Assembly (NCBI GenBank): GCA_015489175.1
Contig: WGAI01000008.1
Location: forward strand, 2,457 to 66,456
Reading direction: 5' to 3'
Source of the DNA: a candidate division WOR-3 bacterium
Lineage (GTDB): Bacteria > Hydrothermota > Hydrothermia > B15-G9
Length of the DNA: 64,000 nt
The notes below the pieces were generated by a model. It made no database searches, was not told the DNA's origin, and worked only from the letters and a program-made list of their open reading frames with translations. A program made the position numbers and the translations under genes. Below, piece by piece: positions 5,999-27,403 of this stretch; position 1 is the first letter of the stretch; each line of letters begins with the position of its first letter.

Positions 5999-7702
5999 AT
6001 GGCTATCCTTGAACTCAACATCCGTAACCTTGTCCTTGTTCGTGATGTTAGAATTGAATTTTCCAGAGGGTTGAACATCATAACTGGTGAGACCGGCACA
6101 GGTAAATCGTTGCTCATAAACGGATTAAGCATCCTCGTCGGCGAGAAAGCGTCGCGAGACCTGATCGGGCGAAATGGGAAATCGGCAGATGTCTCAGCGG
6201 TGTTTGAGGTGCCGTCTGAATTGATGCCAAAACTATCCGAAATGGGGTTTGAACCTGACGATGATGTCCTGATAATAAGGCGGGTGTTACGGCAGTCGGG
6301 GACAAGGAGTTACATAAACGGAGCACCTGTCACGAGGCAACAACTTCGAGCTGTAACTTCTATGTTGATCGATATCCACGGCCAGCACGGCCATCAGGTG
6401 CTGTTAGATGAAACGAGTCACATCCAGTTCCTGGACAGGTTCGGAAAGTTAGAGTCCATGGTCAAGGAGGTCGCACAGCGCTACCGCAGGTGGCAAAGCC
6501 TGTTAACCAGACTGCGTGAGGGAAAAGAGAGACTATCGCGTCTGCGCGAGATGCGTGATTTCATGGAGTATCAGCTTTCGGAGCTCGAAGAAGCCGATCT
6601 GAGAGAAGGCGAGGACGAGGAGATCAGCGAGAGGCTGAATGTGCTGACTAACATCGAAAAAATCCGTCAGGCGGTCGCCACAGCACTGAAACTTCTTTAT
6701 GAGGCCGAAGATTCTGCCCATTCAAAGGTAAGCCACGCCCTTGAGCTCATGAAAGACGCCTCGGGCTTCGACTCGAGACTGAAAGAATTCATTGAGCCGT
6801 TAACTAACTCGGAATCCGTGCTTTCGGACATAGGCAGCTCGCTGTCGGTTTACATGGAGGATTTATCTTACGATCCCGCTGAGATAGAAGCACTTAACGC
6901 AAGGCTTGCATTGATAAACAGGCTCAAATCTAAATACAAAACCGACCTGAAAGGCCTAATTCAGCTCAGAGAAAAACTGAGGAACGACATAAACGAGCTC
7001 GATCTGGGGGATTTCCGAATTGGGGAACTGGAACGACAGGTCGAAGAAGCGCGTGAAGAGTTTTATGAGCTTGCGCTCAAGCTATCGGCCAGGAGGCGCG
7101 AAATAGCGTCCATATTCAAAACAAAAGTTGAAGCGGAACTCGCCGAGCTCGGCATGGGCGATGCCCGTTTTGAGGTGGACATTCAGTCAGCGCAGCCATC
7201 CGAATCCGGCATTGACACCGTGCGGTTTGCTGTGTCCAGACCATCGGAATCTGGGATTGACACAATAAAATTCATGATAAGCACAGTGCCTGGAGAGGAA
7301 CCGCGCCCGTTGATGAGGATAGTATCAGGTGGTGAGCTTTCGCGAATCATGCTCGCCCTCAAGGTTGTCCTCGCCGAAATCGATGTCGTGCCAACGCTTG
7401 TTTTCGACGAGATCGATGTCGGCATAAGCGGTCGTATAGCCGAAGCGGTGGGAAGAAAGATGAAAAAAGTGGCAGCACACCGGCAGGTGATAGCCGTCAC
7501 ACACCTACCCCAAATAGCCGTGTTCGCCGACGCTCATTTCAAAGTCGAAAAGAAAAGGGCAGCTGATAGCCTTGAAACCACCGTTAAGTTTCTTGAGAAT
7601 AATGAGCGTGTAATGGAAATAGCAAGCATGTTGACTGGAGAGAAGATAACGGACGCATCGATCCAGCAAGCGCGGGAACTTTTAAAAATCGCAAAACTAT
7701 AA
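5999..7702 (+). CDS. recN: DNA repair protein RecN
   Basis: Walker A TGETGTGKS, IHGQH Q-loop, signature SGGELSR, Walker B FDEID.GISG, VTHLPQIA. The start is set at ATG 5999, not the track start 5906. Confidence 0.96.
   Translation: MAILELNIRNLVLVRDVRIEFSRGLNIITGETGTGKSLLINGLSILVGEKASRDLIGRNGKSADVSAVFEVPSELMPKLSEMGFEPDDDVLIIRRVLRQSGTRSYINGAPVTRQQLRAVTSMLIDIHGQHGHQVLLDETSHIQFLDRFGKLESMVKEVAQRYRRWQSLLTRLREGKERLSRLREMRDFMEYQLSELEEADLREGEDEEISERLNVLTNIEKIRQAVATALKLLYEAEDSAHSKVSHALELMKDASGFDSRLKEFIEPLTNSESVLSDIGSSLSVYMEDLSYDPAEIEALNARLALINRLKSKYKTDLKGLIQLREKLRNDINELDLGDFRIGELERQVEEAREEFYELALKLSARRREIASIFKTKVEAELAELGMGDARFEVDIQSAQPSESGIDTVRFAVSRPSESGIDTIKFMISTVPGEEPRPLMRIVSGGELSRIMLALKVVLAEIDVVPTLVFDEIDVGISGRIAEAVGRKMKKVAAHRQVIAVTHLPQIAVFADAHFKVEKKRAADSLETTVKFLENNERVMEIASMLTGEKITDASIQQARELLKIAKL
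7196..7285 (+). repeat. In-frame 45-nt (15 aa) tandem duplication inside recN
   Basis: PSESGIDTVRFAVSR followed by PSESGIDTIKFMIST; ccatccgaatccggcattgacac at 7196 vs ccatcggaatctgggattgacac at 7241. Confidence 0.85.
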
Positions 7703-7735
7703 TTTAAAAATCACGGTTTTAACAGGGAGGGAATC

Positions 7736-8092
7736 ATGAGAATCTTCATATTTGATGATGAACCGGACATACTCGAGGCATTGATAACATACATGTCGTG
7801 CAACGGTAACGAGTTGTATGGTTTCGTAGATTACAGGGAGGCGATAAAATTCGCCCGAGACAGCGAAAACAAAATAGATGTTGCCATAGTAGATGGCGCT
7901 ATCGACGGCTATATGGAGGTTGGCCTCGAACTTTCGTCCATAATAAGGAGCAAAAATCCTGATGCAAGGATAATCATTCTCACAGGTTTTTCAGAAATGA
8001 CAAACCGGGAAATGCTTGAAAAATATAAAGTCGAGCTTAAGGAGAAGCCATCCGGCGTTCTCGACATCGTAAATGAGTTCGGGTGTATATGA
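7736..8092 (+). CDS. Single-domain response regulator (receiver only)
   Basis: IFDDEP, AIVD phospho-Asp, ILTG, KP; overlaps the kinase gene. Confidence 0.88.
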   Translation: MRIFIFDDEPDILEALITYMSCNGNELYGFVDYREAIKFARDSENKIDVAIVDGAIDGYMEVGLELSSIIRSKNPDARIIILTGFSEMTNREMLEKYKVELKEKPSGVLDIVNEFGCI

Positions 8093-10770
8093 GAAGATAC
8101 CGTGACATTCTCAAAGAGTTTATAGAACAGGTTATCCACGACATCAAAAGGAGCGATGTGGCTCTCGGCTTGCTTTATCTGTCGTTCACCACATTGATCT
8201 TCCTGCTCCTTGTATTTCTCAAACCCCTTGCTCCCGTGTCAACCGCAATCAACCAGCTCATCGTTTATCACATAAAGGCTCCAGAAAACGCACCCCGCAT
8301 ACTGATAGTCAATCCCAATGACCATACAAACTCACAGTTCCTATCTGAGGTCGAACAAATAGCCAAAACTGGAGAAAAAACGGCGATTTTGATACCATTT
8401 CAATGGATCTTTTGGGAAAGGGCGGAAAAACCTAATTCATATAGACTTATAAGTTTTATAGACAGCATTAATAGGTCAAACGGAAAAGTTAAAATTTTTC
8501 TCATATCCCAGAGGAGAATAAACTATCGAATGGCCATAAGGGACACGATGCTTAAGCGTATATCGGAGTATATCTCTTTCTGGTCTGTCAGCTCCACCAG
8601 AAAGGCCATTTTTCCTTCCCCTATTAAACTTGATATTCCCGGTGAGTCGCCCCCTAATGTGCCGGTAGTTAAAAAAATTCGAGATTTTTTCGGTCCGAAA
8701 AGATCAGGTGGCAGCAAAAGGGGCAGAAGAGATGTTGTGAATGCGATCCCTATCAACCTATCCCCAATGCCATTCGAGCAAATTCCATCCCGTAAAATTT
8801 TATACTTGGATCAGATTGTGAAGTCGTATAAAAAAGAGGTGATCCTTATATGGGTTCCCGTAGATTTCGATCACATCATGGTAACAAGTGCTAAAAGGAC
8901 GCTTTCTTTCTCTCAAATACTTGCCCTGAGCATCTGGAACGAATTCGTCCCAATAAAGATGAAGCCATTTCCTCTCATGGCGGATATCATTGTGTTTTTC
9001 CTCATCGCTGTTCTGATTGCCGGGGTCAGGAAAAGAATTAACAATCTGTTTTTCGCTATTGTCATGATTGTCCTAACGATAGTGTCCCTCTATTTTTATG
9101 TCTCAAGGTATTTCTTCCCGGGAAAATACACACCTCGAATAATGGAAATCGGGTTAGCTATGTGGCTCGGCTATTTCTTTGTGTTCGCAGTCGAATCTCA
9201 CCTATTTGACCGAGCTATAGGCATTATCAAAAAATATGTTAAGGAATCGCGCACCTACATATATGTCGGAAGCAACTTTTCACCGGCATTTTACAGTTCT
9301 CTAAAACAGCTGATCCCCCCACTTGTCGCAATGGAGATTCGGACAGGATGGCCGTTCAAGCCCCATGTCAAAAGATACGGGATGAAAGATATCTCTCCCG
9401 AAAAGTTAAATTCATTGTTGCAATATTCCATCAAGAGGAAACTTGGCCTGTTTTATTCCACAAAAATTACTCTCTACTTTGAGAGTAATTTTCCCTTCAC
9501 CGACTATGAACTGAATTTTGTCGAGCGGATATGGAAAAAATCCGTTTTTATCCCTCCAATAGTTGAGTCCGTCTATTCGTGGGAAAAACTGGAGTCCTAC
9601 GGCACAAACATCTACAACGCTGACAATTACATAGAAGCGCTTGTCTATGAAAGCGTCGGATTTATATACCTGCTCGATGAAATGGAGAGCGGCGCTGCGA
9701 TATTCTGCTGCGCAGGCGTTCTGATTTATTGCAACACTAAGTTCTACGAAATACTTGGTAAAAACGAGCCTCCATCATCAGGCACGGTGATATTCGACCT
9801 CTTTGCAGACACCTTCATGGAACCATACATAAAACACATCAAAAATGTGCTGCTTATGAGACAATACACCACGGAAGACATCAAGACAATCGAGGATAGC
9901 AAAAACAAAAAGTTTTACAACATATTTTTTAGACCACTTGTCTCTCCCGAGAAAAGCAATGTAACCTTATACATGATGATACTTCAGGATGTCACGGTCA
10001 TATACCAGAAATACGAGACGGAAAAAGCATTTCGTGAAGACACTATCCACATGCTGGTCCACGAGCTCAGAAATGCACTAAGCACTACTCTATTAGACAT
10101 AAAACTGTTGCGTTCACGGCTGGGAAATGACGAGGAAATCATACAGAAAAGGCTCAAAGCTATGGAACTTTCTGTTAGATTGTTTGGAGAGCACATGGAA
10201 AAACTTAAGCACTATGCCGACTTAATGGGTAAGAAAGACATCTCCGTGGAATTGAAACATGTAAATCTTAAGGAGTTGATGAAAAAAATTTCTGAGATTA
10301 TCGATACTGTCTATCGAGGCAGAAAAGCTGAATGGACAAATTCAAAGCTTATCATAGATATACCGGATGATATGAATATAATCGTAGATGAACACCTGTT
10401 GAGTATAGTCCTCAAGAATTTGGTGGAGAACGGGTTAAAGTATAGCAATTCCAAGGTAATGGTAACGGCTGAGGACAAGGGGGAGATTGTCGAAATACGG
10501 GTGGAAGATGACGGGGAAGGCATCCCTCCTGATAAAATAAACCTGATTTGGGAAGCATTTCAGCGTATCCACACCAAGGGCAGCTCAAGCAAGGGCAGGA
10601 TTCCCGGCCTCGGACTTGGGCTGCATATCGTCCAAAGGATAATCTCATCCTACATGGAAGGCGCCTCAATCGAGGTAGGTAGAAGCGAGAAGCTCGGAGG
10701 CGCCAGCTTCATATTAAGACTTAAAAAGTGGCCTTTTCCTAACCGAAAACAACATCAAGGTAAAGCATGA
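8083..10770 (+). CDS. Membrane sensor histidine kinase (large extracytoplasmic region, PAS-like domain, HisKA, HATPase)
   Basis: H-box HELRNAL, N-box NLVENGLKY, G1 VEDDGEGIP, G2 GLGLGL. One N-terminal TM plus a 3-TM cluster, a CHASE2-like layout. Confidence 0.9.
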   Translation: MYMRRYRDILKEFIEQVIHDIKRSDVALGLLYLSFTTLIFLLLVFLKPLAPVSTAINQLIVYHIKAPENAPRILIVNPNDHTNSQFLSEVEQIAKTGEKTAILIPFQWIFWERAEKPNSYRLISFIDSINRSNGKVKIFLISQRRINYRMAIRDTMLKRISEYISFWSVSSTRKAIFPSPIKLDIPGESPPNVPVVKKIRDFFGPKRSGGSKRGRRDVVNAIPINLSPMPFEQIPSRKILYLDQIVKSYKKEVILIWVPVDFDHIMVTSAKRTLSFSQILALSIWNEFVPIKMKPFPLMADIIVFFLIAVLIAGVRKRINNLFFAIVMIVLTIVSLYFYVSRYFFPGKYTPRIMEIGLAMWLGYFFVFAVESHLFDRAIGIIKKYVKESRTYIYVGSNFSPAFYSSLKQLIPPLVAMEIRTGWPFKPHVKRYGMKDISPEKLNSLLQYSIKRKLGLFYSTKITLYFESNFPFTDYELNFVERIWKKSVFIPPIVESVYSWEKLESYGTNIYNADNYIEALVYESVGFIYLLDEMESGAAIFCCAGVLIYCNTKFYEILGKNEPPSSGTVIFDLFADTFMEPYIKHIKNVLLMRQYTTEDIKTIEDSKNKKFYNIFFRPLVSPEKSNVTLYMMILQDVTVIYQKYETEKAFREDTIHMLVHELRNALSTTLLDIKLLRSRLGNDEEIIQKRLKAMELSVRLFGEHMEKLKHYADLMGKKDISVELKHVNLKELMKKISEIIDTVYRGRKAEWTNSKLIIDIPDDMNIIVDEHLLSIVLKNLVENGLKYSNSKVMVTAEDKGEIVEIRVEDDGEGIPPDKINLIWEAFQRIHTKGSSSKGRIPGLGLGLHIVQRIISSYMEGASIEVGRSEKLGGASFILRLKKWPFPNRKQHQGKA

Positions 10771-17652: not shown

Positions 17653-18984
17653 TTAGTGGCCGAGCGTAATCCTGGCTATGTTTGTGAAGGTATCGTTGTC
17701 CGTCCATTCGGCGCTTGGATCGGCATCGTGGATGGTCGGATCATCGGGTATCGAACTTACAGCCGATGAGTTATCTCCGCCAGCAATCCATGCTATCATA
17801 CCGAGCGAATCGCGAGCTCCGCCAAGCAAATTCCACGGGATAGCTATCTCAAGCGTCTGAAGTCCATGATCGGACGACCCAGTCCATGCATACTGGCCAT
17901 CAAAATTGGCAGGACTGCCCCAGCCGCCCTGATACGGTATGAAATTGGCCGCAGTGAAGGCATCTCCGTTCTCAGGCCACCAGAAATAGAGCTCATAATC
18001 GATGCCATAGCCCGAAAATCCGATGTGTCTGCCCCATCCGTCGGATGTGCCTTCGGAATAACCGCCATCCGCAACATCGAAACCAAATCCGTAGGCCAAT
18101 CCCCAGGAGGCCTCATTTCGCGTGGTTATTGCAACATATAGGTTGCTGGTGTCAGAAGATACGAAAAGCTGATACAAAGATGCGCCTTCGAGGCCGTTGA
18201 CGACGCCGGAATCCACAAGAGTCCAGTTCTCTTCATCGGAGATAACGCCATCGATCACTATCATGCCTTCGGGTATCTGAGCGAGCTCAACCGTCCCGAT
18301 CGATGTGGTATCATCCTCTGCAACAGTCACATCTGTTACGGTATCGGGGATATATCCGCCTGCGTTGATGACCACGCTGTAATTGCCAGCTTCGAGTCCC
18401 GCTGCGATGAAATCACCTGTCGTGCTGTCGGAAGTCACAGTTGTGACAGCGCTCCACGCGGTGTCATACACCGTCACGGTAGCTGTCGGGAAAGGAGGCT
18501 CCGAATCGTTCTCAAACTCGATATGCCCCGTGATGGCGCCGCCGGCCGCACCGATGTATGTGAACTGGTAAAACAGCGTCTGCTCGTTGAAATCAACCTT
18601 CCACAGCCCAGCCTGCGGTATGGTAGTCTCGATGTGGTCGCCAAGTCCGCCTGCGTTCGGATCGACATATCCATGAAGGCTGTCGTTTTTAATGGCACTT
18701 GTATCGCCGTATGCCAAGTTCCATTGTCCTTCTGGCACAAGTTTGTATTTGATTTTGCGGGCAGGCAGCCTGAGGACAAGCTCCCATTGCCAATCGCCGA
18801 CGAGATGCATGTCAGGAGCGGTGTTCAAATCCCAGGGCGTATCCTGAAAATCGCCAACCATCTGCAATCTATCCCAATTTGAGAGGAAAACCGAGCCAGG
18901 AGCGTTGAAATCAGGCCCTTTCACCTCTTTGCATGCTGTCACAAGTAGCACGGAGAACAAAAATAAAGCGATCTTTCTCATCAT
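17653..18984 (-). CDS. Multidomain lipoprotein: SusE/SusF- or CBM48-like starch-binding domain, carboxypeptidase-regulatory-like domain, DOMON/CBM9-like C-terminal domain
   Basis: Lipobox LVTA-C; VGDF..W....M....W...L.L.....KYK...W...YG; GAITG...ATVTV...TGDF...GL..GNY.V...GY; IVIDG..W..LY...D..NLYVAI. Trp/Asp-rich; no catalytic glycoside-hydrolase motif seen. Confidence 0.65.
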   Translation of the reverse strand: MMRKIALFLFSVLLVTACKEVKGPDFNAPGSVFLSNWDRLQMVGDFQDTPWDLNTAPDMHLVGDWQWELVLRLPARKIKYKLVPEGQWNLAYGDTSAIKNDSLHGYVDPNAGGLGDHIETTIPQAGLWKVDFNEQTLFYQFTYIGAAGGAITGHIEFENDSEPPFPTATVTVYDTAWSAVTTVTSDSTTGDFIAAGLEAGNYSVVINAGGYIPDTVTDVTVAEDDTTSIGTVELAQIPEGMIVIDGVISDEENWTLVDSGVVNGLEGASLYQLFVSSDTSNLYVAITTRNEASWGLAYGFGFDVADGGYSEGTSDGWGRHIGFSGYGIDYELYFWWPENGDAFTAANFIPYQGGWGSPANFDGQYAWTGSSDHGLQTLEIAIPWNLLGGARDSLGMIAWIAGGDNSSAVSSIPDDPTIHDADPSAEWTDNDTFTNIARITLGH

Positions 18985-19102: not shown

Positions 19103-19729
19103 TCAAATCAATCCGAGCCACGAGTGAAGCAAGAAGTAAATTCTTCCAATCAAGAGACTTACACGAGCCATTATCGTGTATCCGAACGAGGCGCCAAATG
19201 CCACCATTATGAAAACTATGCCTATTTTTGCGGCGGCGCCGAATTTCCCTTTTATTGGCTTCGAGAAGTAGAAGTATGTTATTGTGAAAACGGTTCCGAA
19301 CACCAGGAACCAGTTGTTGACTGTCGTGGCAAGGCCACCGCTAACCCAGAGCGGCAGGAAAGTGCCTTTCAGCTGTGGCACAAGGTAACCGTTCAGCATT
19401 CCGAGGATGCCGAGCCCGGCGCCCATGCCAACCGCGAACGCTATTGCCCATCTCGAAAGCCATCTTATCTGTGGGATGAAACGGGTCAGCATAAGTATGG
19501 ACAAAATCAGCGGCACGATGACGGCCAGAATGTTACCGCTCGCTATGGGATCCCAGAGTTTGGGCTTCACATCGAAAAACCACAGGTTGAGGAATGCAAA
19601 GGCGGCGGACGACCCCACGAACACGCTTTCAGCGAACTTGTAAAACGGGTTGTCCTTGTAAAGAAAACTGAAGATTGCAAGGGTGAAGAACGCAGCCACC
19701 CAGACCCAGATCGATGTGCTCAGATGCAT
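19103..19729 (-). CDS. Module B subunit 4: uncharacterised polytopic membrane protein
   Basis: About 6 TMs; TLAIFSFLYKDNP.Y..AE..FVG and GASFG.T.MAR.SLLIGR shared with 23564..24277. Confidence 0.85.
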   Translation of the reverse strand: MHLSTSIWVWVAAFFTLAIFSFLYKDNPFYKFAESVFVGSSAAFAFLNLWFFDVKPKLWDPIASGNILAVIVPLILSILMLTRFIPQIRWLSRWAIAFAVGMGAGLGILGMLNGYLVPQLKGTFLPLWVSGGLATTVNNWFLVFGTVFTITYFYFSKPIKGKFGAAAKIGIVFIMVAFGASFGYTIMARVSLLIGRIYFLLHSWLGLI

Positions 19730-19730
19730 T

Positions 19731-20558
19731 TCATGACCTCCTTTTCCTCTGAGTGGCGATGTAGCCGATGTTGCCGAGTATGATGAAGGCTATGATCAGG
19801 AAGTGGACAAACGCTTGCGTGGTCATACCGTAGGTAGCTGTGCCCTTGTGATGGACGAGGTTTTCGTAATCAGCGGCGGCACGCAGCCCGCCGAGCACCG
19901 CTATGATCTGACCAGCCTGCTTGTAGGGGTAAAGGTCAGGTGCAACCACGGCGGTCGAACCGAGTATTATTCTGGCACCGTATCGCGCATTGGCGAATTG
20001 CGCCCACATATCGCCCACACTGCCGGCCTCAAAACCTATGATAACGCCGATGTCATCGTAGTTCTTAATTCCATGCATCACAGGCATGTCTTTGAGTGGG
20101 CGGTTCTTGTAATCTACATTGTCGAATGTCTTGGGGATGTCCTTCCCCATACTTATCATTACGGCCTGGAGCCCCGGACGGTAGCCAAGCACGACATAAT
20201 CAACGCCATACTTCTTTCCATACTCACTGGCCACCTCTTCGACAGCCTTCTGGGCAAGTGGAACACCGAGCGCCCAGTGCGACATCACCAGAACCCTCAT
20301 GTTCCTGCTGAATAACTGTCTTAGGATAGCAACAAGCATGGGCTGAAGCTCAGGCATCGATGAGGCATCGTAGTCGGCCGAAATTATCACGGCACTGCCT
20401 TCCGGAAGAGAATTTATGAAGTCATAAGCTTCAACGACATCAGAAGTCGGCTTCATGGGAATCTCCACTTTGAAAAGGAACGGCACGGTGGCCACGATGA
20501 AAAGTATCAGGTAAATGATCCTGCGATCTATTTTCGACATGCTTTCAAAGATATTCAT
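19731..20558 (-). CDS. Module B subunit 3: TM - alpha/beta domain - TM protein
   Basis: YDFI...PGS....Y..SSMPEL.PM, DYV.LGY..G, GQI...GL.AAADYE shared with 24279..25169. Confidence 0.85.
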   Translation of the reverse strand: MNIFESMSKIDRRIIYLILFIVATVPFLFKVEIPMKPTSDVVEAYDFINSLPEGSAVIISADYDASSMPELQPMLVAILRQLFSRNMRVLVMSHWALGVPLAQKAVEEVASEYGKKYGVDYVVLGYRPGLQAVMISMGKDIPKTFDNVDYKNRPLKDMPVMHGIKNYDDIGVIIGFEAGSVGDMWAQFANARYGARIILGSTAVVAPDLYPYKQAGQIIAVLGGLRAAADYENLVHHKGTATYGMTTQAFVHFLIIAFIILGNIGYIATQRKRRS

Positions 20559-20568
20559 GGCTGCCTCC

Positions 20569-21354
20569 TTAGCTCATGTAACTCCGCTCTATGCCGAGGA
20601 TGATGCGCAGTGAAACAGCTATCCCTCCGAGAGCGAGCCCGAGCATTATCCCCCTCTTAGCTGCCATCTGAGGTATGTCCATGATCCAGTCCGTTGCCGC
20701 CGACAGATTGCCGTAGAGAAATTTTGTGAGGGGCACAGCTATGACCACCATCAAAATCAGCATGAGGAGGTAACCCACGCGCGTTGATGCTGATGTCGTC
20801 GCCTTTATCTCGAGTAACAGAACCCATGCGACAAGCAGAACCGCTATCCACAGGACGGGGATAAGCGCTGCATTTCCGAGAGGCACGCGTCCGAGCATGA
20901 TTATTGACGCCGTGATAAGCAGCAATGTGGCGTTAAGGCTCCTCGCCCTGAATGCGCGATAAGCGGCACTGGCTATGAAAAACGACAGAATTGCGAACAT
21001 CGTCGCCTGCAACGGCACATAGATGTAGAGGTAGAAGTAGTTGCGGAATGTGGAATTGGTCGAGAAGATGTGGCCTGTCCGCACCCCCGAAACGATGCCC
21101 CAGACCAGCGTCACCACGAAACTCAGGATAACCGTAAGAGCAAACGGCCAATCCTTGCCTTTCCTGCGAATTTTGTCCCAGTTGTAAAGGAGCAGACTGT
21201 CTATGCCGAGGATAAATGTGAACCCTGAAACTATGATATACCAGGAATTTAGTGTTTCCTCCATCTTGTTGAAAGGCGGGTGCGGGACAAAAAGGCTTAT
21301 CACTATCAATGTTCCAGCCAGAAAGCTTATGAGAAGCGGTATCTCTCTTTTCAT
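20569..21354 (-). CDS. Module B subunit 2: uncharacterised polytopic membrane protein
   Basis: VPL.ATMF..L.F...SAAYRAFRAR...ATLLL and W.M..P..A.KRGI..G shared with 25166..25783. Start at ATG 21354, overlapping the subunit 1 stop (ATGA). Confidence 0.85.
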   Translation of the reverse strand: MKREIPLLISFLAGTLIVISLFVPHPPFNKMEETLNSWYIIVSGFTFILGIDSLLLYNWDKIRRKGKDWPFALTVILSFVVTLVWGIVSGVRTGHIFSTNSTFRNYFYLYIYVPLQATMFAILSFFIASAAYRAFRARSLNATLLLITASIIMLGRVPLGNAALIPVLWIAVLLVAWVLLLEIKATTSASTRVGYLLMLILMVVIAVPLTKFLYGNLSAATDWIMDIPQMAAKRGIMLGLALGGIAVSLRIILGIERSYMS

Positions 21355-22490
21355 TGGGCACCTCCCGCGAAGAAGGTCTTGATTAACGACCACGACTTAT
21401 TGCCTGTGACGCCTGCAACTGTCTCCAGCACGGCGCCCACGAGTATCAAACCGATGAATATGATCTTCATCCAGTCCTCAGCCTTGATCGTTGCGAGGGA
21501 ATTGGGATCTCTGGATAGGTATGCGCTTGCAGCATACATCTCCTCACCTATCAGGGTGTAGTCGGTCGCTGCAATGAGGAACGGCAGCTGGGTGACAGAC
21601 GATGTGCCGGCAATCTGGATTGCACCTATCGAGTGCCCTGTCTCTGCGATTATCAGGGATTCCGCATAGAATGCGCCCTGAAGGAATATCGCACCGGGTT
21701 TCTGTCTCATGATGATGCCGTCTATGCCTGCGGCATAACCAAACTGGTCGTTTGTGAGGAAATAGACATTTTTTTCGTTGTAAAGGTCGGGTCTGCCTGC
21801 TTCAAGATACCCCTGTTTCACGGTCTCCTGTGCAGCGGCCATGACGACAGGGTCAAAGCATGGCACGATTATATCCGATTCGTATTCAGCGGCTTTCATC
21901 GCAACACGCTTGAGGATAGCAAGGCCGGCGAGCGTGGCTATGTCGGAAACCGTGCCAAGTCCGAGCACAAAAAGGAGCGGCCTGCCCATCTCGGTGGCTC
22001 TTCCGACTGCATCATCGACGGCCTGAAGTCCAGCTATCGGTCTAATGGTCAGCCTCTCGCCTCTTCGCGCCTTCTTGAGGTAGTAGATGAGCAAAGCACC
22101 ATAAAGCAAAAGGATTATCAACGCCGCAATACGGCCTTTGTGAAGCCATTGTGCCCTGGGAACCACCGGCGGAGATATTGCCGAGTCTATGTAATCGCCA
22201 TCTTTGAACCAGACACGGATGAAATACCTGTAAGGATGCCCATTTTTAAGGTCAGTATCCATGTATCGCCTTGCAGTGGGCTTGAGTTCCTCCACGACAA
22301 CGGGGGCTGTGCCCGGTCTATCGATTCGCATGATTTGAATGTAGCTAATCTGTGATAGGTCAGCATCTTTCCTGTAATCCCATTTAAGAATAATCTGGCC
22401 GCCCTCGTCGTTGGGGTTGTCCATAACCTTGAGGTCAACGATCGGAGAGGGCCTGACAGAAAAGATGACCATCAAAACAAAACTTATCAT
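21351..22490 (-). CDS. Module B subunit 1: signal peptide, FN3-like domain, TM, DUF6754-like domain, TM
   Basis: D.PNDEGG.I.LKW and Y.DTDL.NG..Y.Y.I (FN3-like); IRPIAGL.AVD.AVGRATEMGRP; AES...AETG; IGEEMYAASAYL. SD AGGAGG 6 nt before ATG 22490. Confidence 0.85.
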   Translation of the reverse strand: MISFVLMVIFSVRPSPIVDLKVMDNPNDEGGQIILKWDYRKDADLSQISYIQIMRIDRPGTAPVVVEELKPTARRYMDTDLKNGHPYRYFIRVWFKDGDYIDSAISPPVVPRAQWLHKGRIAALIILLLYGALLIYYLKKARRGERLTIRPIAGLQAVDDAVGRATEMGRPLLFVLGLGTVSDIATLAGLAILKRVAMKAAEYESDIIVPCFDPVVMAAAQETVKQGYLEAGRPDLYNEKNVYFLTNDQFGYAAGIDGIIMRQKPGAIFLQGAFYAESLIIAETGHSIGAIQIAGTSSVTQLPFLIAATDYTLIGEEMYAASAYLSRDPNSLATIKAEDWMKIIFIGLILVGAVLETVAGVTGNKSWSLIKTFFAGGAQ

Positions 22491-22537: not shown

Positions 22538-23452
22538 TCAATCAACCTTAGGGAAAACAGACAGGTGCAGCAACCGGTTATGTGAGTCGGTCAGCCCGGT
22601 AGCAACCAACTCCTCACCTATGTATCTTAAATCACTACCATCGACCGCTCCATTAAAAACCTCAAACTCGGCCGACATGATGTGAGTCATGATCTTTTCG
22701 AGATCCTCTTTGCCCACAAGTGATGTCTGTTTTGACGAGAGCTCAATCGCGTCGAGAGCGAACCCTCGAACAAGCTTGTCCTTAAATTTTCTCATAAGCT
22801 CGTTGGAGCTGAAGATGTCAACAGAGAGGAATTCACCGCCTGCAAATGCCGCTATCCCAATAACATCATCGGTTATGTCTATCTCTTCGACATACCTCTC
22901 TATTTCATCTTTCAAAGCGACAAAAGCGTCGTGGAGCGAGCGTGTAGGTGACTCGAGCCTCATAGACGAGAGCTTATGGGAAACCGAGCTCCAGACCACT
23001 TTCTGGTTAGAATAGAACCTGCCGGTGATTTTAACGGAATGGGTAACAGAGGAAGCAAGCGTAGCCCTGAGCCTCGGATGAACTGATATCCCGGATGGAG
23101 CAAATATCCTGCTGCCTGACCACCTCCACTCCTCAATACAACTCACGGGCACGGCCGCCCTTTTTGACGACTCAAACCAGATAGCCGTGTTGAAAACCCT
23201 GTTCTGAAGTGCCCCCACAATTGCCTCGCCATCGAGTATGAACATCGGCTCATTTCCCCGGTAGTCGATTATAGCGGAACTGACACTCCCTGAATCGATG
23301 ATCTCACCCAGGTTATTCGCCAGCATATCATCGATGGTCAAAGCTGATAGCTTATCAGAAGGGCCTTTGAGCGGATATATGAGCAAATTCCTTGCCCAAA
23401 ATGGCTCCCCTATCTCTATATCCACCATTTCTTTAATTCTCACATTTCCCAT
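22538..23452 (-). CDS. ARPP-1 / DUF6569-like protein
   Basis: NL.IYPL, FILDGE.IVGA.QNRV.NT, VPVSC.E..RW, Q..VW..V, S.T.SL.D, D.F...L..GFALDA. Confidence 0.78.
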   Translation of the reverse strand: MGNVRIKEMVDIEIGEPFWARNLLIYPLKGPSDKLSALTIDDMLANNLGEIIDSGSVSSAIIDYRGNEPMFILDGEAIVGALQNRVFNTAIWFESSKRAAVPVSCIEEWRWSGSRIFAPSGISVHPRLRATLASSVTHSVKITGRFYSNQKVVWSSVSHKLSSMRLESPTRSLHDAFVALKDEIERYVEEIDITDDVIGIAAFAGGEFLSVDIFSSNELMRKFKDKLVRGFALDAIELSSKQTSLVGKEDLEKIMTHIMSAEFEVFNGAVDGSDLRYIGEELVATGLTDSHNRLLHLSVFPKVD

Positions 23453-23501: not shown

Positions 23502-23534
23502 AAAAAAAATAAAGGGCCCGTTTCCAGGCCCTTT
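23502..23534 (-). terminator. Intrinsic terminator after module A
   Basis: aaagggcc/ggcccttt 8-bp stem followed by an 8-U tract on the minus strand. Confidence 0.8.
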
Positions 23535-23563: not shown

Positions 23564-24277
23564 TCAATAAGAAACTATGTGAAGCCACTTAAGCAGGAAC
23601 ATCAACCTTCCTATGAGCAGAGAATAACGCGCCATCACAGTGGAGCCGAAGGAGGCTCCAAATCCGATCATCAGCACTATGATGCCAAATCTGGCGAATT
23701 TTCCGTATGCGCCCTTGTGCTCCTTTGAGAAGAAGAAATATGCCAGCACAGCGAGCACCGACACGAAGATGATGATAGCGCTTATGAATACCACTGTGAG
23801 GCTCCACTCGTATTGCTTCGATAGCTCAGCATATCCCTGCCAGTTCGGTGAATGAAGTATCGTGTCCCACATCTGCTCAAGGATACTTGCCTGAAATGCA
23901 CGCGGTATGGCCATTCCAGAGCCAAGTCCCAACAGGAACGCAAACGGCAGCCTTATCAGGTATGAATACTTAGGCGTGATGACCGAAAGGTAAAGCAGGG
24001 CGAATATAGTCGGAATTATATACCACCAGTTTATCGGAAGAAGCTCACCACCGAGAAGATGCAGCCGCTGCATGATCGGGATTATAAAAGGATCCATCAG
24101 ATTGGGCTTCATTGCAAGGAAGTAGGTCATTGCAAACCCGTATCCTGCCGATAGACCAACAAAAAGGTATTCGGCAAGACGATAAACTGGGTTCTCTTTA
24201 TAAAGGAACGAAAAAATGGCGAGCGTTAGAAACGCCGCCAGTGTTTCCCAGCTGAAAAGCCAGTGAAGGATGCCCAT
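23564..24277 (-). CDS. Module A subunit 4: uncharacterised polytopic membrane protein
   Basis: Paralog of 19103..19729 (TLAIFSFLYKENP..., GASFGSTVMARYSLLIGR). Confidence 0.85.
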   Translation of the reverse strand: MGILHWLFSWETLAAFLTLAIFSFLYKENPVYRLAEYLFVGLSAGYGFAMTYFLAMKPNLMDPFIIPIMQRLHLLGGELLPINWWYIIPTIFALLYLSVITPKYSYLIRLPFAFLLGLGSGMAIPRAFQASILEQMWDTILHSPNWQGYAELSKQYEWSLTVVFISAIIIFVSVLAVLAYFFFSKEHKGAYGKFARFGIIVLMIGFGASFGSTVMARYSLLIGRLMFLLKWLHIVSY

Positions 24278-24278
24278 T

Positions 24279-25169
24279 TTATCTCCTCCTTCTCTGCTGC
24301 TTGCGAATCATGAAAAATGCGAGGTTACCTACTATCACCATGAGTATGAGGTAAAGCTGAGCCCATGTAACGGCTGTGATACCGACTGTCGCGTAAGGTG
24401 GCGGTGTGTAATGAAGTTCCTTTTCCATGAGTTTGGCCACGGCGGCCTCGTAGTCAGCGGCGGCTTTCATACCGTTCAGCAAACCAACAAGCTGGCCTGT
24501 CCTGATGTATTGCTGGTAATCAGCGCCCATGACTGCCGTAATGCCGATCGCTATCTTCTGGTTGAACTGCTGATACGCGTAGGTTATCCATGTAGCACCT
24601 GAACCACTTGCGCTGAAGTCGATTACGAGATCGATGTCGTCATAATTGTGTATCCTTGCCGTCAGCGGCATCGTTTCCTCATCGCTTGTTGAGTGTCCGA
24701 AGTAGTCCACCGGAAATGTCTCGTGGAAATCACCCCCGATACCGCGTATAACCATGGCGTAACCGGTTTTATAGCCCAGATATACATAATCCTTGCCGTA
24801 TTGTAACGGGTGACCTGCCTCCTGGAATTCCTTTGCAACGCTGTTGAAGACATCAAGTCCAAGTCCCGTTCCTTCGATGTTGAGCGACATTCCTATGACT
24901 TTAACACCCCTCAAAAGTGCATGCCTCATGACAGCTTTGGCCATGGGATGCAGCTCTGGCATGGAGCTCGGCCCATAGGTGAAGTTCATCAGCAACACGG
25001 AGCCGGGCTTCATGTGGTCGATGTAGTCGTAAACAAGACGGGTCTCAAGTCCCATCTTCGGATGCGCTTTGATCTTAAGCACTATCGGCAGAATCATAAC
25101 GATCAGGAGGCCGAGATAGATCCAGAACCTTGGAAGTTTCGATAACTTTTCCCAGAAGCTCATGGTCAT
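24279..25169 (-). CDS. Module A subunit 3: TM - alpha/beta domain - TM protein
   Basis: Paralog of 19731..20558 (SSMPELHPM, DYVYLGYKTG, GQLVGLLNGMKAAADYE). Confidence 0.85.
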   Translation of the reverse strand: MTMSFWEKLSKLPRFWIYLGLLIVMILPIVLKIKAHPKMGLETRLVYDYIDHMKPGSVLLMNFTYGPSSMPELHPMAKAVMRHALLRGVKVIGMSLNIEGTGLGLDVFNSVAKEFQEAGHPLQYGKDYVYLGYKTGYAMVIRGIGGDFHETFPVDYFGHSTSDEETMPLTARIHNYDDIDLVIDFSASGSGATWITYAYQQFNQKIAIGITAVMGADYQQYIRTGQLVGLLNGMKAAADYEAAVAKLMEKELHYTPPPYATVGITAVTWAQLYLILMVIVGNLAFFMIRKQQRRRR

Positions 25170-25783
25170 CCTCCCATCCAGTTTCTTTCAATACCGAGTA
25201 TGATCTTCACGGATGTGGCAATCATACCAAGTCCGACCCCGATCGTGATACCGCGTTTCTGAGCCAGATTAGGCACATTCATGATCCATTCCTGAAGGTC
25301 GCGGAGCCATGTCTGGGAATCACCTATCGTCGAAATCCCGAGAATGACGAGTATAGCTGTGAGCAATAGCAGTGTAGCTTCCACATTTCTCGCACGGAAT
25401 GCACGATAAGCAGCTGATGTAACATAGAAACCGAGCAGTGAGAACATCGTCGCGTCAAGCGGAACCTGCACATTGATAAATATCTTCTGGAACACACTGT
25501 CAGGTCCTGTGCCATTTATGAGGCCAAGAAGGGCCATTCCGAACAGACTTATCAACGCCACAAGATTGTAAACAACTTCTTTGCCCCTCTTGATGTTGGT
25601 TATGTATCTGCGGATGAGTGAAGTAATAGCAAGGAATATAGCGAACGAGCCTATGGCTATCGACCACTGGCTCAATGTGTTTTCCAGCGCTTGAGCTGAT
25701 GGATGGGGTATGAAATACAGAGAAGCACCGATCACCCCCATCACGAACACGAGAATCATCGGCAATGTTCGAGAGAAAAACAT
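25166..25783 (-). CDS. Module A subunit 2: uncharacterised polytopic membrane protein
   Basis: Paralog of 20569..21354 (VPLDATMFSLLGFYVTSAAYRAFRARNVEATLLL). Confidence 0.85.
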   Translation of the reverse strand: MFFSRTLPMILVFVMGVIGASLYFIPHPSAQALENTLSQWSIAIGSFAIFLAITSLIRRYITNIKRGKEVVYNLVALISLFGMALLGLINGTGPDSVFQKIFINVQVPLDATMFSLLGFYVTSAAYRAFRARNVEATLLLLTAILVILGISTIGDSQTWLRDLQEWIMNVPNLAQKRGITIGVGLGMIATSVKIILGIERNWMGG

Positions 25784-25794
25784 GTCATATCCTC

Positions 25795-26913
25795 CTACTT
25801 TCCAACGACATAAGGTTTAATAGCATCGACTTTTGCACTGAGCGAAGGGACGAAAGCGGCGATCGTCAAGAGCAGCAGGAATCCCACAAGCACAGCCTTC
25901 ATGACATCCTGTCCCTTTATCGTGGCCGTAAGCCTCGGATCTTTTGCGAGGTAAGCACCAGCAGCGTAAAGCTCTTCACCCATCAGGGTGTAGTCACAAG
26001 CAGTTACAAAGAACGGCAGCTGAGATATGGCATCGGTGCCAGCGATCTGGATGGCGCCTGTCGCGGCTCCGGTCTCTGCAAGAATCAATGACTCTGCGAA
26101 GAAGTAGCCCATGAAGAAGTTGGTAGCCGTCTTTTCACGAACCATTATTCCGGATACGCCTGCGGCATAAGCGAACTGCCTCTGAGTCAGGAAGAATACA
26201 TCCTCACTTTTGAACAGATCTGGCCTGCCCGCTGCGGTGTAAGCATCCTTAACCACCTCACGCGCAACCGTGTAAACGATAGGATCGTAAACAGGAACGA
26301 TGATCCTTGTCTCATAAGCTGCCACTTTTTTCGTGATGTAAGCGAGGATGTTGAGCGCTGCGATAGTCGAAACATCGGTCACACCGAGCAGTCCGGTAGA
26401 GTATAGGATTGGCCGTCCCATCTCGGTGGCACGCCCAATGGCATTATCCACTTCCGCAAGCCCGGCTATAGGCCTCAAATATAACTCCTGGCCCTTCTGA
26501 GCTTTCGACATATAGGAAAGCAGGATTGCAATGTAGAAGATCGCGAGGAGGAGCAGGAACAGCTTTTTCTTGTTGAAAAGCGACGCCTTTGGTATAACGC
26601 TGTTGGAGACAGTTTGAGTTACGAACTTACCGGTCTTAGTGTTGACCAACACATAGTATCTAACGGGCATGGTATCAGACAATTCCCGATCACCAAGTCT
26701 TATAACGGTGTCCTTCACCTCACCTACATAAATGTCTTTCTTGACACCGTTATCCTCAATCCTGGTGATCCGCATAATGTCACCGATAAGTGAATTATCC
26801 AGTTTGACAATAATCTGCGTTCTGCCCCCCCCGTCGTCAGGCACATCGCGAGCCTTGACGGAGAGTTTGCTATTGGCCCCTGTCAGAAGGAGCAGTAATA
26901 CAAGCTTCACCAT
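25795..26913 (-). CDS. Module A subunit 1: signal peptide, FN3-like domain, TM, DUF6754-like domain, TM
   Basis: ARDVPDDGGG; LRPIAGL.EVDNAIGRATEMGRP; AESLILAETG; MGEELYAAGAYL. Paralog of 21351..22490. Confidence 0.85.
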   Translation of the reverse strand: MVKLVLLLLLTGANSKLSVKARDVPDDGGGRTQIIVKLDNSLIGDIMRITRIEDNGVKKDIYVGEVKDTVIRLGDRELSDTMPVRYYVLVNTKTGKFVTQTVSNSVIPKASLFNKKKLFLLLLAIFYIAILLSYMSKAQKGQELYLRPIAGLAEVDNAIGRATEMGRPILYSTGLLGVTDVSTIAALNILAYITKKVAAYETRIIVPVYDPIVYTVAREVVKDAYTAAGRPDLFKSEDVFFLTQRQFAYAAGVSGIMVREKTATNFFMGYFFAESLILAETGAATGAIQIAGTDAISQLPFFVTACDYTLMGEELYAAGAYLAKDPRLTATIKGQDVMKAVLVGFLLLLTIAAFVPSLSAKVDAIKPYVVGK

Positions 26914-26945: not shown

Positions 26946-26973
26946 CAAAAAAACCGCCCCAGCAAGCGGCGTT
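26946..26973 (-). terminator. Probable intrinsic terminator after the EF-G paralog/lipoprotein pair
   Basis: Minus strand gccgc-ttgctggg-gcggt followed by a long U-run. Confidence 0.6.
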
Positions 26974-26986
26974 ACAGTCGAAAAGG

Positions 26987-27403
26987 TCAATACACAGCTC
27001 TGACGACAGCTTGGGGAGTTATGATTCTGCCGCTCTTGCCGTCAAATTCGTAATCTATCACGACCTCCACGGTGTCATTAGGCTGCAATTGAAGATTGTA
27101 GATGTGCAGCTCGTTGGCGCTCGTGATCTCCCATTTGGCAAGGGAATCCTCAACTTCCGTCCCGTTGATAACAAAACTAATGCCCCTGAGCCGAACCTTG
27201 TTCAGCATATCTTCAGGGGCATTTGAAAGGTCAAAAGAAATCAGAATGTGACCTTTCCGAGCAGATAGAGTGTCGAAGGTGGGCATGAGGTTAACCCACG
27301 CCTCGACACTCTGTATATTCGCTTTTTTCCCGTTAAAGCATGACACGGCAGTTAGAACAACAACCAATATTGCAATCCCAATGGCTCTAAGCCTGAACCT
27401 CAC
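26987..27403 (-). CDS. Hypothetical lipoprotein
   Basis: Signal peptide with lipobox TAVS-C; start overlaps the stop of the EF-G paralog. Confidence 0.7.
   Translation of the reverse strand: MRFRLRAIGIAILVVVLTAVSCFNGKKANIQSVEAWVNLMPTFDTLSARKGHILISFDLSNAPEDMLNKVRLRGISFVINGTEVEDSLAKWEITSANELHIYNLQLQPNDTVEVVIDYEFDGKSGRIITPQAVVRAVY

Follow-up and report, generated by a model that had tools for sequence, protein, structure and literature searches.

A DUF6754 membrane cassette with two Rossmann-like subunits predicted to face opposite sides of the membrane and lacking detectable homology to each other

Introduction

RnfA and RnfE, like NqrD and NqrE (PF02508), belong to the same membrane complex, share an operon and lie in the membrane in opposite orientations. 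They are proteins of six transmembrane (TM) helices whose membrane parts are inverted, and the two members of the pair are plainly homologous. Another way of building a membrane complex is seen in MacB/FtsX-type and GldG-type proteins, where a globular extracytoplasmic domain is held by flanking TM helices beside polytopic partners. Here we analyse a 64,000-nucleotide stretch (the window; coordinates are positions in it unless a contig is named) of a candidate division WOR-3 bacterium of the Hydrothermota (assembly GCA_015489175.1, contig WGAI01000008.1, positions 2,457 to 66,456 of the forward strand), which carries two paralogous four-gene membrane cassettes, A and B. Their products are called subunits 1 to 4 (s1-s4, with the letter of the cassette copy), and s1 belongs to the DUF6754 family (PF20539). 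The finding concerns s1B and s3B, together with the gene between them.

A sequence-only reading of this locus had taken s1 and s3 for distant homologues inserted in opposite orientations, with s2 and s4 as a possible second pair, and had proposed a complex pseudo-symmetric across the membrane. As in RnfA/RnfE, s1 and s3 come from one operon and are predicted to be oppositely oriented parts of one membrane complex. The comparison differs on three points: only two TM helices are present in each of s1 and s3, where it is a soluble domain, not a membrane part, that faces opposite ways; s1 and s3 show no detectable kinship; and by profile s2 and s4 match neither one another nor RnfA/E. The MacB/FtsX- and GldG-type proteins differ from the cassette as well, since there is no sequence or family match to them and no ABC ATPase, the associated ATPase having an actin/sugar-kinase fold. 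The closest counterparts are DUF6754 cassettes of other phyla that go with a GlmL/MutL-type (PF13941) ASKHA ATPase, which the present locus matches in gene order and in its link to GlmL and to a 373-residue partner protein (partner X).

Results

The first and third proteins of the cassette share a common build. Hydropathy and AlphaFold2 models agree, for s1 as for s3, on an alpha/beta domain of about 190-200 residues held between two TM helices, as the sequence-only reading had described; its FN3-like head on s1 is likewise borne out by profile and structure searches (titin FN3 at E 2.7e-7 in a profile search of PDB; FN3 domains in Foldseek, 4o00 with TMt 0.77-0.78 and a root mean square deviation of 3.2). 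The models, built from family alignments, reach a predicted local distance difference test score (pLDDT) of 84.4 for s1B, and a pLDDT of 94.2 with a predicted TM-score (pTM) of 0.89 for s3B. In both, the domain consists of 13 secondary-structure elements in identical order, aA-b1-aB-b2-aC-b3-aD-b4-aE-b5-aF-b6-aG, and is followed by TM2. The helices (H) and strands (E) are H153-167, E172-175, H184-202, E207-211, H214-230, E242-244, H247-263, E267-271, H275-284, E289-294, H299-308, E311-314 and H315-326 in s1B, and H39-50, E56-62, H68-84, E88-93, H98-112, E121-126, H131-144, E172-177, H181-193, E197-201, H206-214, E220-223 and H224-234 in s3B.

These six alternating beta-alpha units liken both domains to Rossmann-like three-layer alpha/beta sandwiches, such as the NAD-binding domains of dehydrogenases, from which they differ in being inserted between two TM helices and in having no cofactor motif. 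For s3, Foldseek against PDB gave no more than weak, generic Rossmann-like matches (best E 1.8e-3, query-normalised TM-scores of at most 0.36), among them MTH777 (1kjn, probability 1.00, TMt 0.59), shikimate and lactate dehydrogenases and SRP GTPases. Profile searches against PDB sequences returned FN3 only for the s1 family and nothing for the s3 family. When conservation was read against the models, the conserved residues of both domains were found at the C-terminal strand ends, where folds of this kind usually bind a ligand or interact, and the s1 domain has a Gly-rich loop after b1. At the level of families, s1B matches DUF6754 over its full length (E 1.4e-109, 365.6 bits, gathering cut-off 27), as does s1A (Table 1), and s3 has no match to that model. 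A search of all eight subunits of the window against Pfam and NCBIfam gave DUF6754 and nothing else, leaving s2, s3 and s4 in no family. Sequence search found 348 relatives of s3; one homologue (locus L082, 10001-11239, P0102) has 412 residues, some 135 more than usual, and aligns at 39% identity over 75% of the query; its additional region may be of use in locating the domain outside the cell.

The orientation of the two proteins was read from lysine and arginine (K+R) residues, counted over 15 residues to the left and right of every TM helix; the 58 s1 and 91 s3 sequences used represent about ten phyla. At TM1 of s1 the mean count is 1.62 before the helix and 4.17 after it (more after in 53 of 58 sequences), and at TM2 it is 1.91 before and 1.05 after (more before in 41 of 58). 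In s3 the bias runs the other way, with 2.87 before and 1.74 after TM1 (more before in 71 of 91) and 1.63 before and 3.86 after TM2 (more after in 77 of 91). By the positive-inside rule, we predict with good confidence that the alpha/beta domain of s1 is cytoplasmic and that of s3 external, with both s3 termini inside; a cytoplasmic s1 domain also fits the exported FN3 head ahead of TM1. The basic strings on which the sequence-only reading had placed the two soluble domains on opposite sides of the membrane are all present in the translations (KKARRGER in s1B and KAQKGQE in s1A after TM1; SKIDRR and SKLPR before TM1 of s3; QRKRRS and RKQQRRRR after its last TM helix), as are both of its C-terminal patterns, and the family-wide bias supports that placement as a prediction. 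The codons for the RKRRS tail of s3B contain the Shine-Dalgarno (SD) sequence of s4B (AAGGAGG, window 19729-19745, minus strand). A basic tail on s3 is, however, conserved throughout the family (mean 3.9 K+R) and is therefore more than a ribosome-binding-site artefact.

Every statistical test of homology between s1 and s3 came out at chance level. Pairwise BLASTP in the two cassettes gave E values of 0.23 and 1.1. Comparison by hhalign of 39- and 38-sequence alignments gave a probability of 1.3%, the only match being a generic 21-column TM helix; with larger alignments of 58 and 91 sequences from 80 loci, a comparison that covered all six subunit pairs and found none above chance, the figure for s1 and s3 was 0.8%, and for the soluble domains alone, aligned in local, global and greedy modes, it was 0.27% (P = 0.22). 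With hidden Markov models (HMMs) of the domains, real sequences of the other subunit scored like reversed or shuffled decoys. The same hhalign method, applied as a positive control to RnfA and RnfE (10 and 12 sequences from this genome and its relatives), gave 99.2% and E 7e-20. We also scored the beta-alpha units of s1 against those of s3 in an 8 x 8 matrix of profile scores, looking for an in-register diagonal. The in-register mean was 9.4, against 9.0 +/- 3.0 out of register, and a diagonal at least as good arises in 31% of unit permutations. The two units that carry the C-terminal patterns score 8.6 (b5-aF) and 14.6 (b6-aG) in register; the Ala/Gly-rich helix of s3 b6-aG is simply promiscuous, because its out-of-register score with s1 b1-aB (17.1) exceeds the in-register one.

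Global alignment of the DSSP strings of the two domains scored 196 (self-scores 286 and 308), which corresponds to z = 4.1 over shuffles of element order; all 120 shuffles scored lower. Since this null would be beaten by any regular domain of six beta-alpha units, the alignment shows a common architecture class and not kinship. The two domains are also unequally conserved, with 60 invariant columns in s1 and 13 in s3. Over 38 loci the mean pairwise identity is 64% for the s1 domain, 49% for the s3 domain and 30% for the FN3 head, the least conserved part of s1; among the three paralogues of this genome the corresponding ranges are 53-67%, 38-45% and 27-33%.

The polytopic subunits gave the same answer. 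Pairwise BLASTP of s2 against s4 was at chance level, and hhalign gave 0.5%. A C-terminal motif common to the two (KRGI..G....R..L.IG.R) was considered as a sign of kinship and set aside (hhalign 0.7%, not significant). None of the four subunits resembles RnfA/E in hhalign against an RnfA/E alignment. A relationship of s2 and s4 in particular to RnfA/E was rejected, with no Pfam match to PF02508 at E up to 1 and hhalign values of 0.1% for s2 and 4.9%, over 13 columns, for s4. Of the claims in the sequence-only reading, then, the distant homology of s1 and s3, for which it had proposed an HHalign comparison of the alpha/beta domains, is supported by none of these tests, the parallel C-terminal patterns do not rise above chance, and s2 and s4 show no profile similarity that would make them a second pair. 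The pseudo-symmetry across the membrane rested on that homology and is left unsupported; the unequal conservation of the two domains weakens it further.

The cassette is a stable unit. The order s1-s2-s3-s4 is kept in all 21 loci compared, from about ten phyla (WOR-3, TA06, Nitrospira, Ignavibacteria, Armatimonadota, Brocadiia/Scalindua, Zixibacteria, Latescibacteria, Poribacteria and Stahlbacteria). Among 51 loci of at least 9 kb, the gene for partner X stands directly upstream of s1 in 31, and a GlmL/MutL protein of about 600 residues is encoded next to the cassette in 25. The recurring operon is GlmL-X-s1-s2-s3-s4, seen in Nitrospira, Armatimonadota, Brocadiia, Poribacteria and TA06. Within the phylum, DUF6754 is found in 107 of 121 genomes, usually in 2-5 copies, and PF13941 in all 27 DUF6754-positive genomes tested. 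One genus (g22; genomes G011, G025, G047 and others) has DUF6754 in none of 14 genomes and PF13941 in none of the nine tested, a clean joint loss of the two. A genome carries one to five paralogous cassettes, against usually one GlmL. Operon structure and presence/absence thus link the cassette to a GlmL-type actin-fold ATPase and the 373-residue partner. The present genome has three cassettes, the two in the window and a complete third on contig C26 (23098-26350), and a single gene each for the ATPase and partner X; unlike in the operons elsewhere, these components are spread over four contigs.

Partner X weakly matches RnfC_N (E 3.5e-5, just under the cut-off), NqrA_N (E 0.005) and Biotin_lipoyl. 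We do not take this as a link to Rnf/Nqr, reading the RnfC_N and NqrA_N matches as a common barrel-sandwich hybrid fold. In the Nitrospira-type operons (L030, L035, L036 and 19 other loci, at about 7600-9000) a Memo-like gene of about 420 codons directly follows s4, and a 124-residue protein is encoded ahead of GlmL (L035, 585-956). At L082 a Memo/AMMECR1 pair lies about 4 kb downstream of the cassette.

The genes of both cassettes and their parts are listed in Table 1. An AAGGAGG lies 7 nt upstream of the ATG at 22490, which is taken as the start of s1B and coincides with the right-hand end given in the sequence-only reading; a longer TTG start at 22541 was dropped in favour of this ATG with its strong SD. 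The likely start ATG of s2B overlaps the s1B stop (ATGA), so that s1 and s2 are tightly coupled, and an SD (AAGGAGG) precedes the s3B ATG at 20558. Between the two paralogues, identity is 46% for s1A and s1B and 34% for s3A and s3B. Terminators flank cassette A, one at 26953-26970 before it and a strong one at 23511-23534 (minus strand) after it. The gene with an ARPP-1 domain that lies between the cassettes is probably co-transcribed with cassette B, because the 23511-23534 terminator is upstream of it and none was found ahead of s1B. No insert of this kind separates the tandem cassettes of other genomes, and ARPP-1 is not a conserved part of the system. Two predicted lipoproteins are encoded beside the cassettes on the minus strand, one of 443 residues with a CarboxypepD_reg domain (17653-18984; E 2e-10) and one of 138 residues in no family (26987-27403), which is followed by the terminator at 26953-26970.

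Table 1. Features of cassettes A and B and of associated genes in the same genome.
Feature	Position	Strand	Remarks
Cassette B (s1B-s2B-s3B-s4B)	19103-22490	-	s1B, s3B and the gene between are the site of the finding
s1B, subunit 1, 379 aa	21351-22490	-	Hydrophobic leader, FN3 head, TM1, predicted cytoplasmic DUF6754 alpha/beta domain, TM2
FN3 head of s1B, residues ~15-112	22155-22448	-	Predicted outside the cell membrane
TM1 of s1B, residues ~118-142	22065-22139	-	Hydropathy 2.2; AlphaFold2 helix 118-142; then basic cluster KKARRGER
(beta-alpha)6 domain of s1B, residues ~145-328	21507-22058	-	DUF6754 core, predicted cytoplasmic; AlphaFold2 elements
TM2 of s1B, residues ~329-362	21405-21506	-	AlphaFold2 helix 329-362, continuous with helix aG; hydropathy 2.48
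s2B, subunit 2	20569-21354	-	Polytopic membrane protein; likely start ATG at 21354
s3B, subunit 3, 275 aa	19731-20558	-	TM1, predicted outward-facing (beta-alpha)6 domain, TM2 and basic tail
Rossmann-like domain of s3B, residues ~34-238	19845-20459	-	Predicted outward-facing; AlphaFold2 elements
s4B, subunit 4, 208 aa	19103-19729	-	Polytopic membrane protein; SD within s3B
ARPP-1 domain gene	22538-23452	-	Between the cassettes, abutting s1B; PF20208, E 7e-63
Cassette A (s1A-s2A-s3A-s4A)	23564-26913	-	Paralogous; gene order as in cassette B
s1A	25795-26913	-	PF20539, E 1e-105, 352.4 bits
s2A	25166-25783	-	Cassette A member
s3A	24279-25169	-	Cassette A member
s4A	23564-24277	-	Cassette A member
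GlmL/MutL-type ASKHA protein, 630 aa	Contig C29, 11771-13663		Single GlmL-like gene of this genome
Partner X, 373 aa	Contig C70, 23832-24953		Single copy in this genome

Discussion

The above results suggest that s1 and s3 are not an inverted-topology duplicate pair in the sense of RnfA/RnfE, their resemblance being more likely a generic one. The reading we favour, with moderate confidence, takes them for two different hairpin-anchored subunits of the DUF6754 cassette that are alike as doubly wound alpha/beta domains generally are, and includes a working model of docking and transport. In this model the membrane core would consist of the polytopic s2 and s4. The s1 domain, which is highly conserved, may be where the cytoplasmic GlmL-type actin-fold ATPase and partner X dock or couple, and the faster-evolving s3 domain, together with the FN3 head, would meet the ligand outside and give each paralogous cassette its outside specificity. 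One common cytoplasmic ATPase module could then energise several paralogous membrane cassettes. A transport-type machine fits because the s1 domain is nearly invariant, the outward parts evolve fast and one ATPase module would serve several cassettes. The anatomy, that is the architecture and the predicted orientation, we hold with good confidence; the docking, specificity and transport roles are only weakly inferred.

Several observations sit uneasily with the favoured reading. The elements of the two domains are alike in length, the sole large difference being a 27-residue excursion before b4 in s3; helix aG runs almost straight into TM2 in both proteins; and a G-T after b5 and a G..AA..Y pattern in aG are conserved in both. 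Greedy hhalign yields a co-linear alignment of 162 columns along the secondary-structure map, with its best local core (b2-aC on b2-aC) in register, as would be expected of an eroded duplication; its P-value, however, is 0.22. With the s1 model, Foldseek searches of PDB and of a set of viral models both gave lists filled by matches to the FN3 head, which do not place the fold class of DUF6754. The topology is predicted from the positive-inside rule and domain logic, and a literature search found no paper that mentions the family.

The points on element length and co-linearity bear on the possibility that s1 and s3 arose by duplication of one TM-alpha/beta-TM ancestor and were fixed in opposite orientations, giving a pseudo-symmetric complex whose sequence similarity has eroded. 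The identical order of elements, the z-score of the string alignment over block-order shuffles, the opposite K+R bias and the constant presence of both genes in one operon would all be expected of such a history. We nevertheless consider it unlikely. No statistical test of homology rises above chance, whereas RnfA and RnfE from the same genomes are recovered at 99.2%, the z-score comes from a null that any regular (beta-alpha)6 domain can beat, the two domains differ widely in their number of invariant columns, and s1 has an extra FN3 head. Known inverted pairs, moreover, invert the membrane-embedded part and not a 200-residue soluble domain that folds in two compartments. An ancient common origin of the s1 and s3 domains as such seems rather unlikely to us. 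The fuller proposal, that the domains are ancient duplicates on opposite faces and the cassette a pseudo-symmetric machine with an actin-fold ATPase, in which the soluble domains are inverted and which would be a new transport-type class, is distinctly improbable.

Other doubts concern function and orientation. The cassette might be an envelope-assembly or signalling scaffold, its Rossmann-like domains being enzyme or ligand-sensing modules that act independently on each side. The clustering of conserved residues of both domains at the usual ligand site and the Gly-rich loop of s1 agree with this, and the relatives of GlmL are generally regarded as reactivases of enzymes and not as ATPases of transport systems. 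However, the excess of cassettes over GlmL genes and the fast outward divergence are better explained by exchangeable specificity modules, and searches of Pfam and NCBIfam, with profile searches of PDB, gave no match to an enzyme family, which makes a scaffold fairly unlikely. If, on the other hand, the topology prediction were wrong and both alpha/beta domains lay on one side, for example both in the cytoplasm, there would be no trans-membrane arrangement at all. The K+R difference at TM1 of s3 is indeed modest, a basic n-region is absent from the leader of s1B if translation begins at the ATG, and the orientation is itself a prediction. Yet all four TM helices agree in their bias, which 70-90% of family members show, FN3 heads typically belong to exported parts and the basic tail after TM2 of s3 is strong, so that a same-side arrangement appears very improbable.

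The genome has a true Rnf operon on another contig (C36, 25607-29185, minus strand), with RnfB, RnfA, RnfE and an RnfG-like gene with two FMN-bind-like repeats, and the DUF6754 cassette therefore does not replace Rnf. Since s1 and s3 are unproven as duplicates, the tempting analogy with Rnf/Nqr or with alternating-access transporters should not be carried forward. Taken as a whole, the DUF6754 system matches no described machine, and its newness belongs to the system. The cassette is widespread, occurring in most genomes of the phylum as well as in Nitrospira, anammox Planctomycetes, Armatimonadota, Ignavibacteria, Zixibacteria and others. With a Rossmann-like domain on either face of the membrane, the very conserved one predicted to be cytoplasmic and the variable one external, the system gains a concrete anatomy, which points to a part that may dock the ATPase and a part that may face the substrate; its interest lies in being widespread and so far unstudied, rather than in the idea of an inverted pair.

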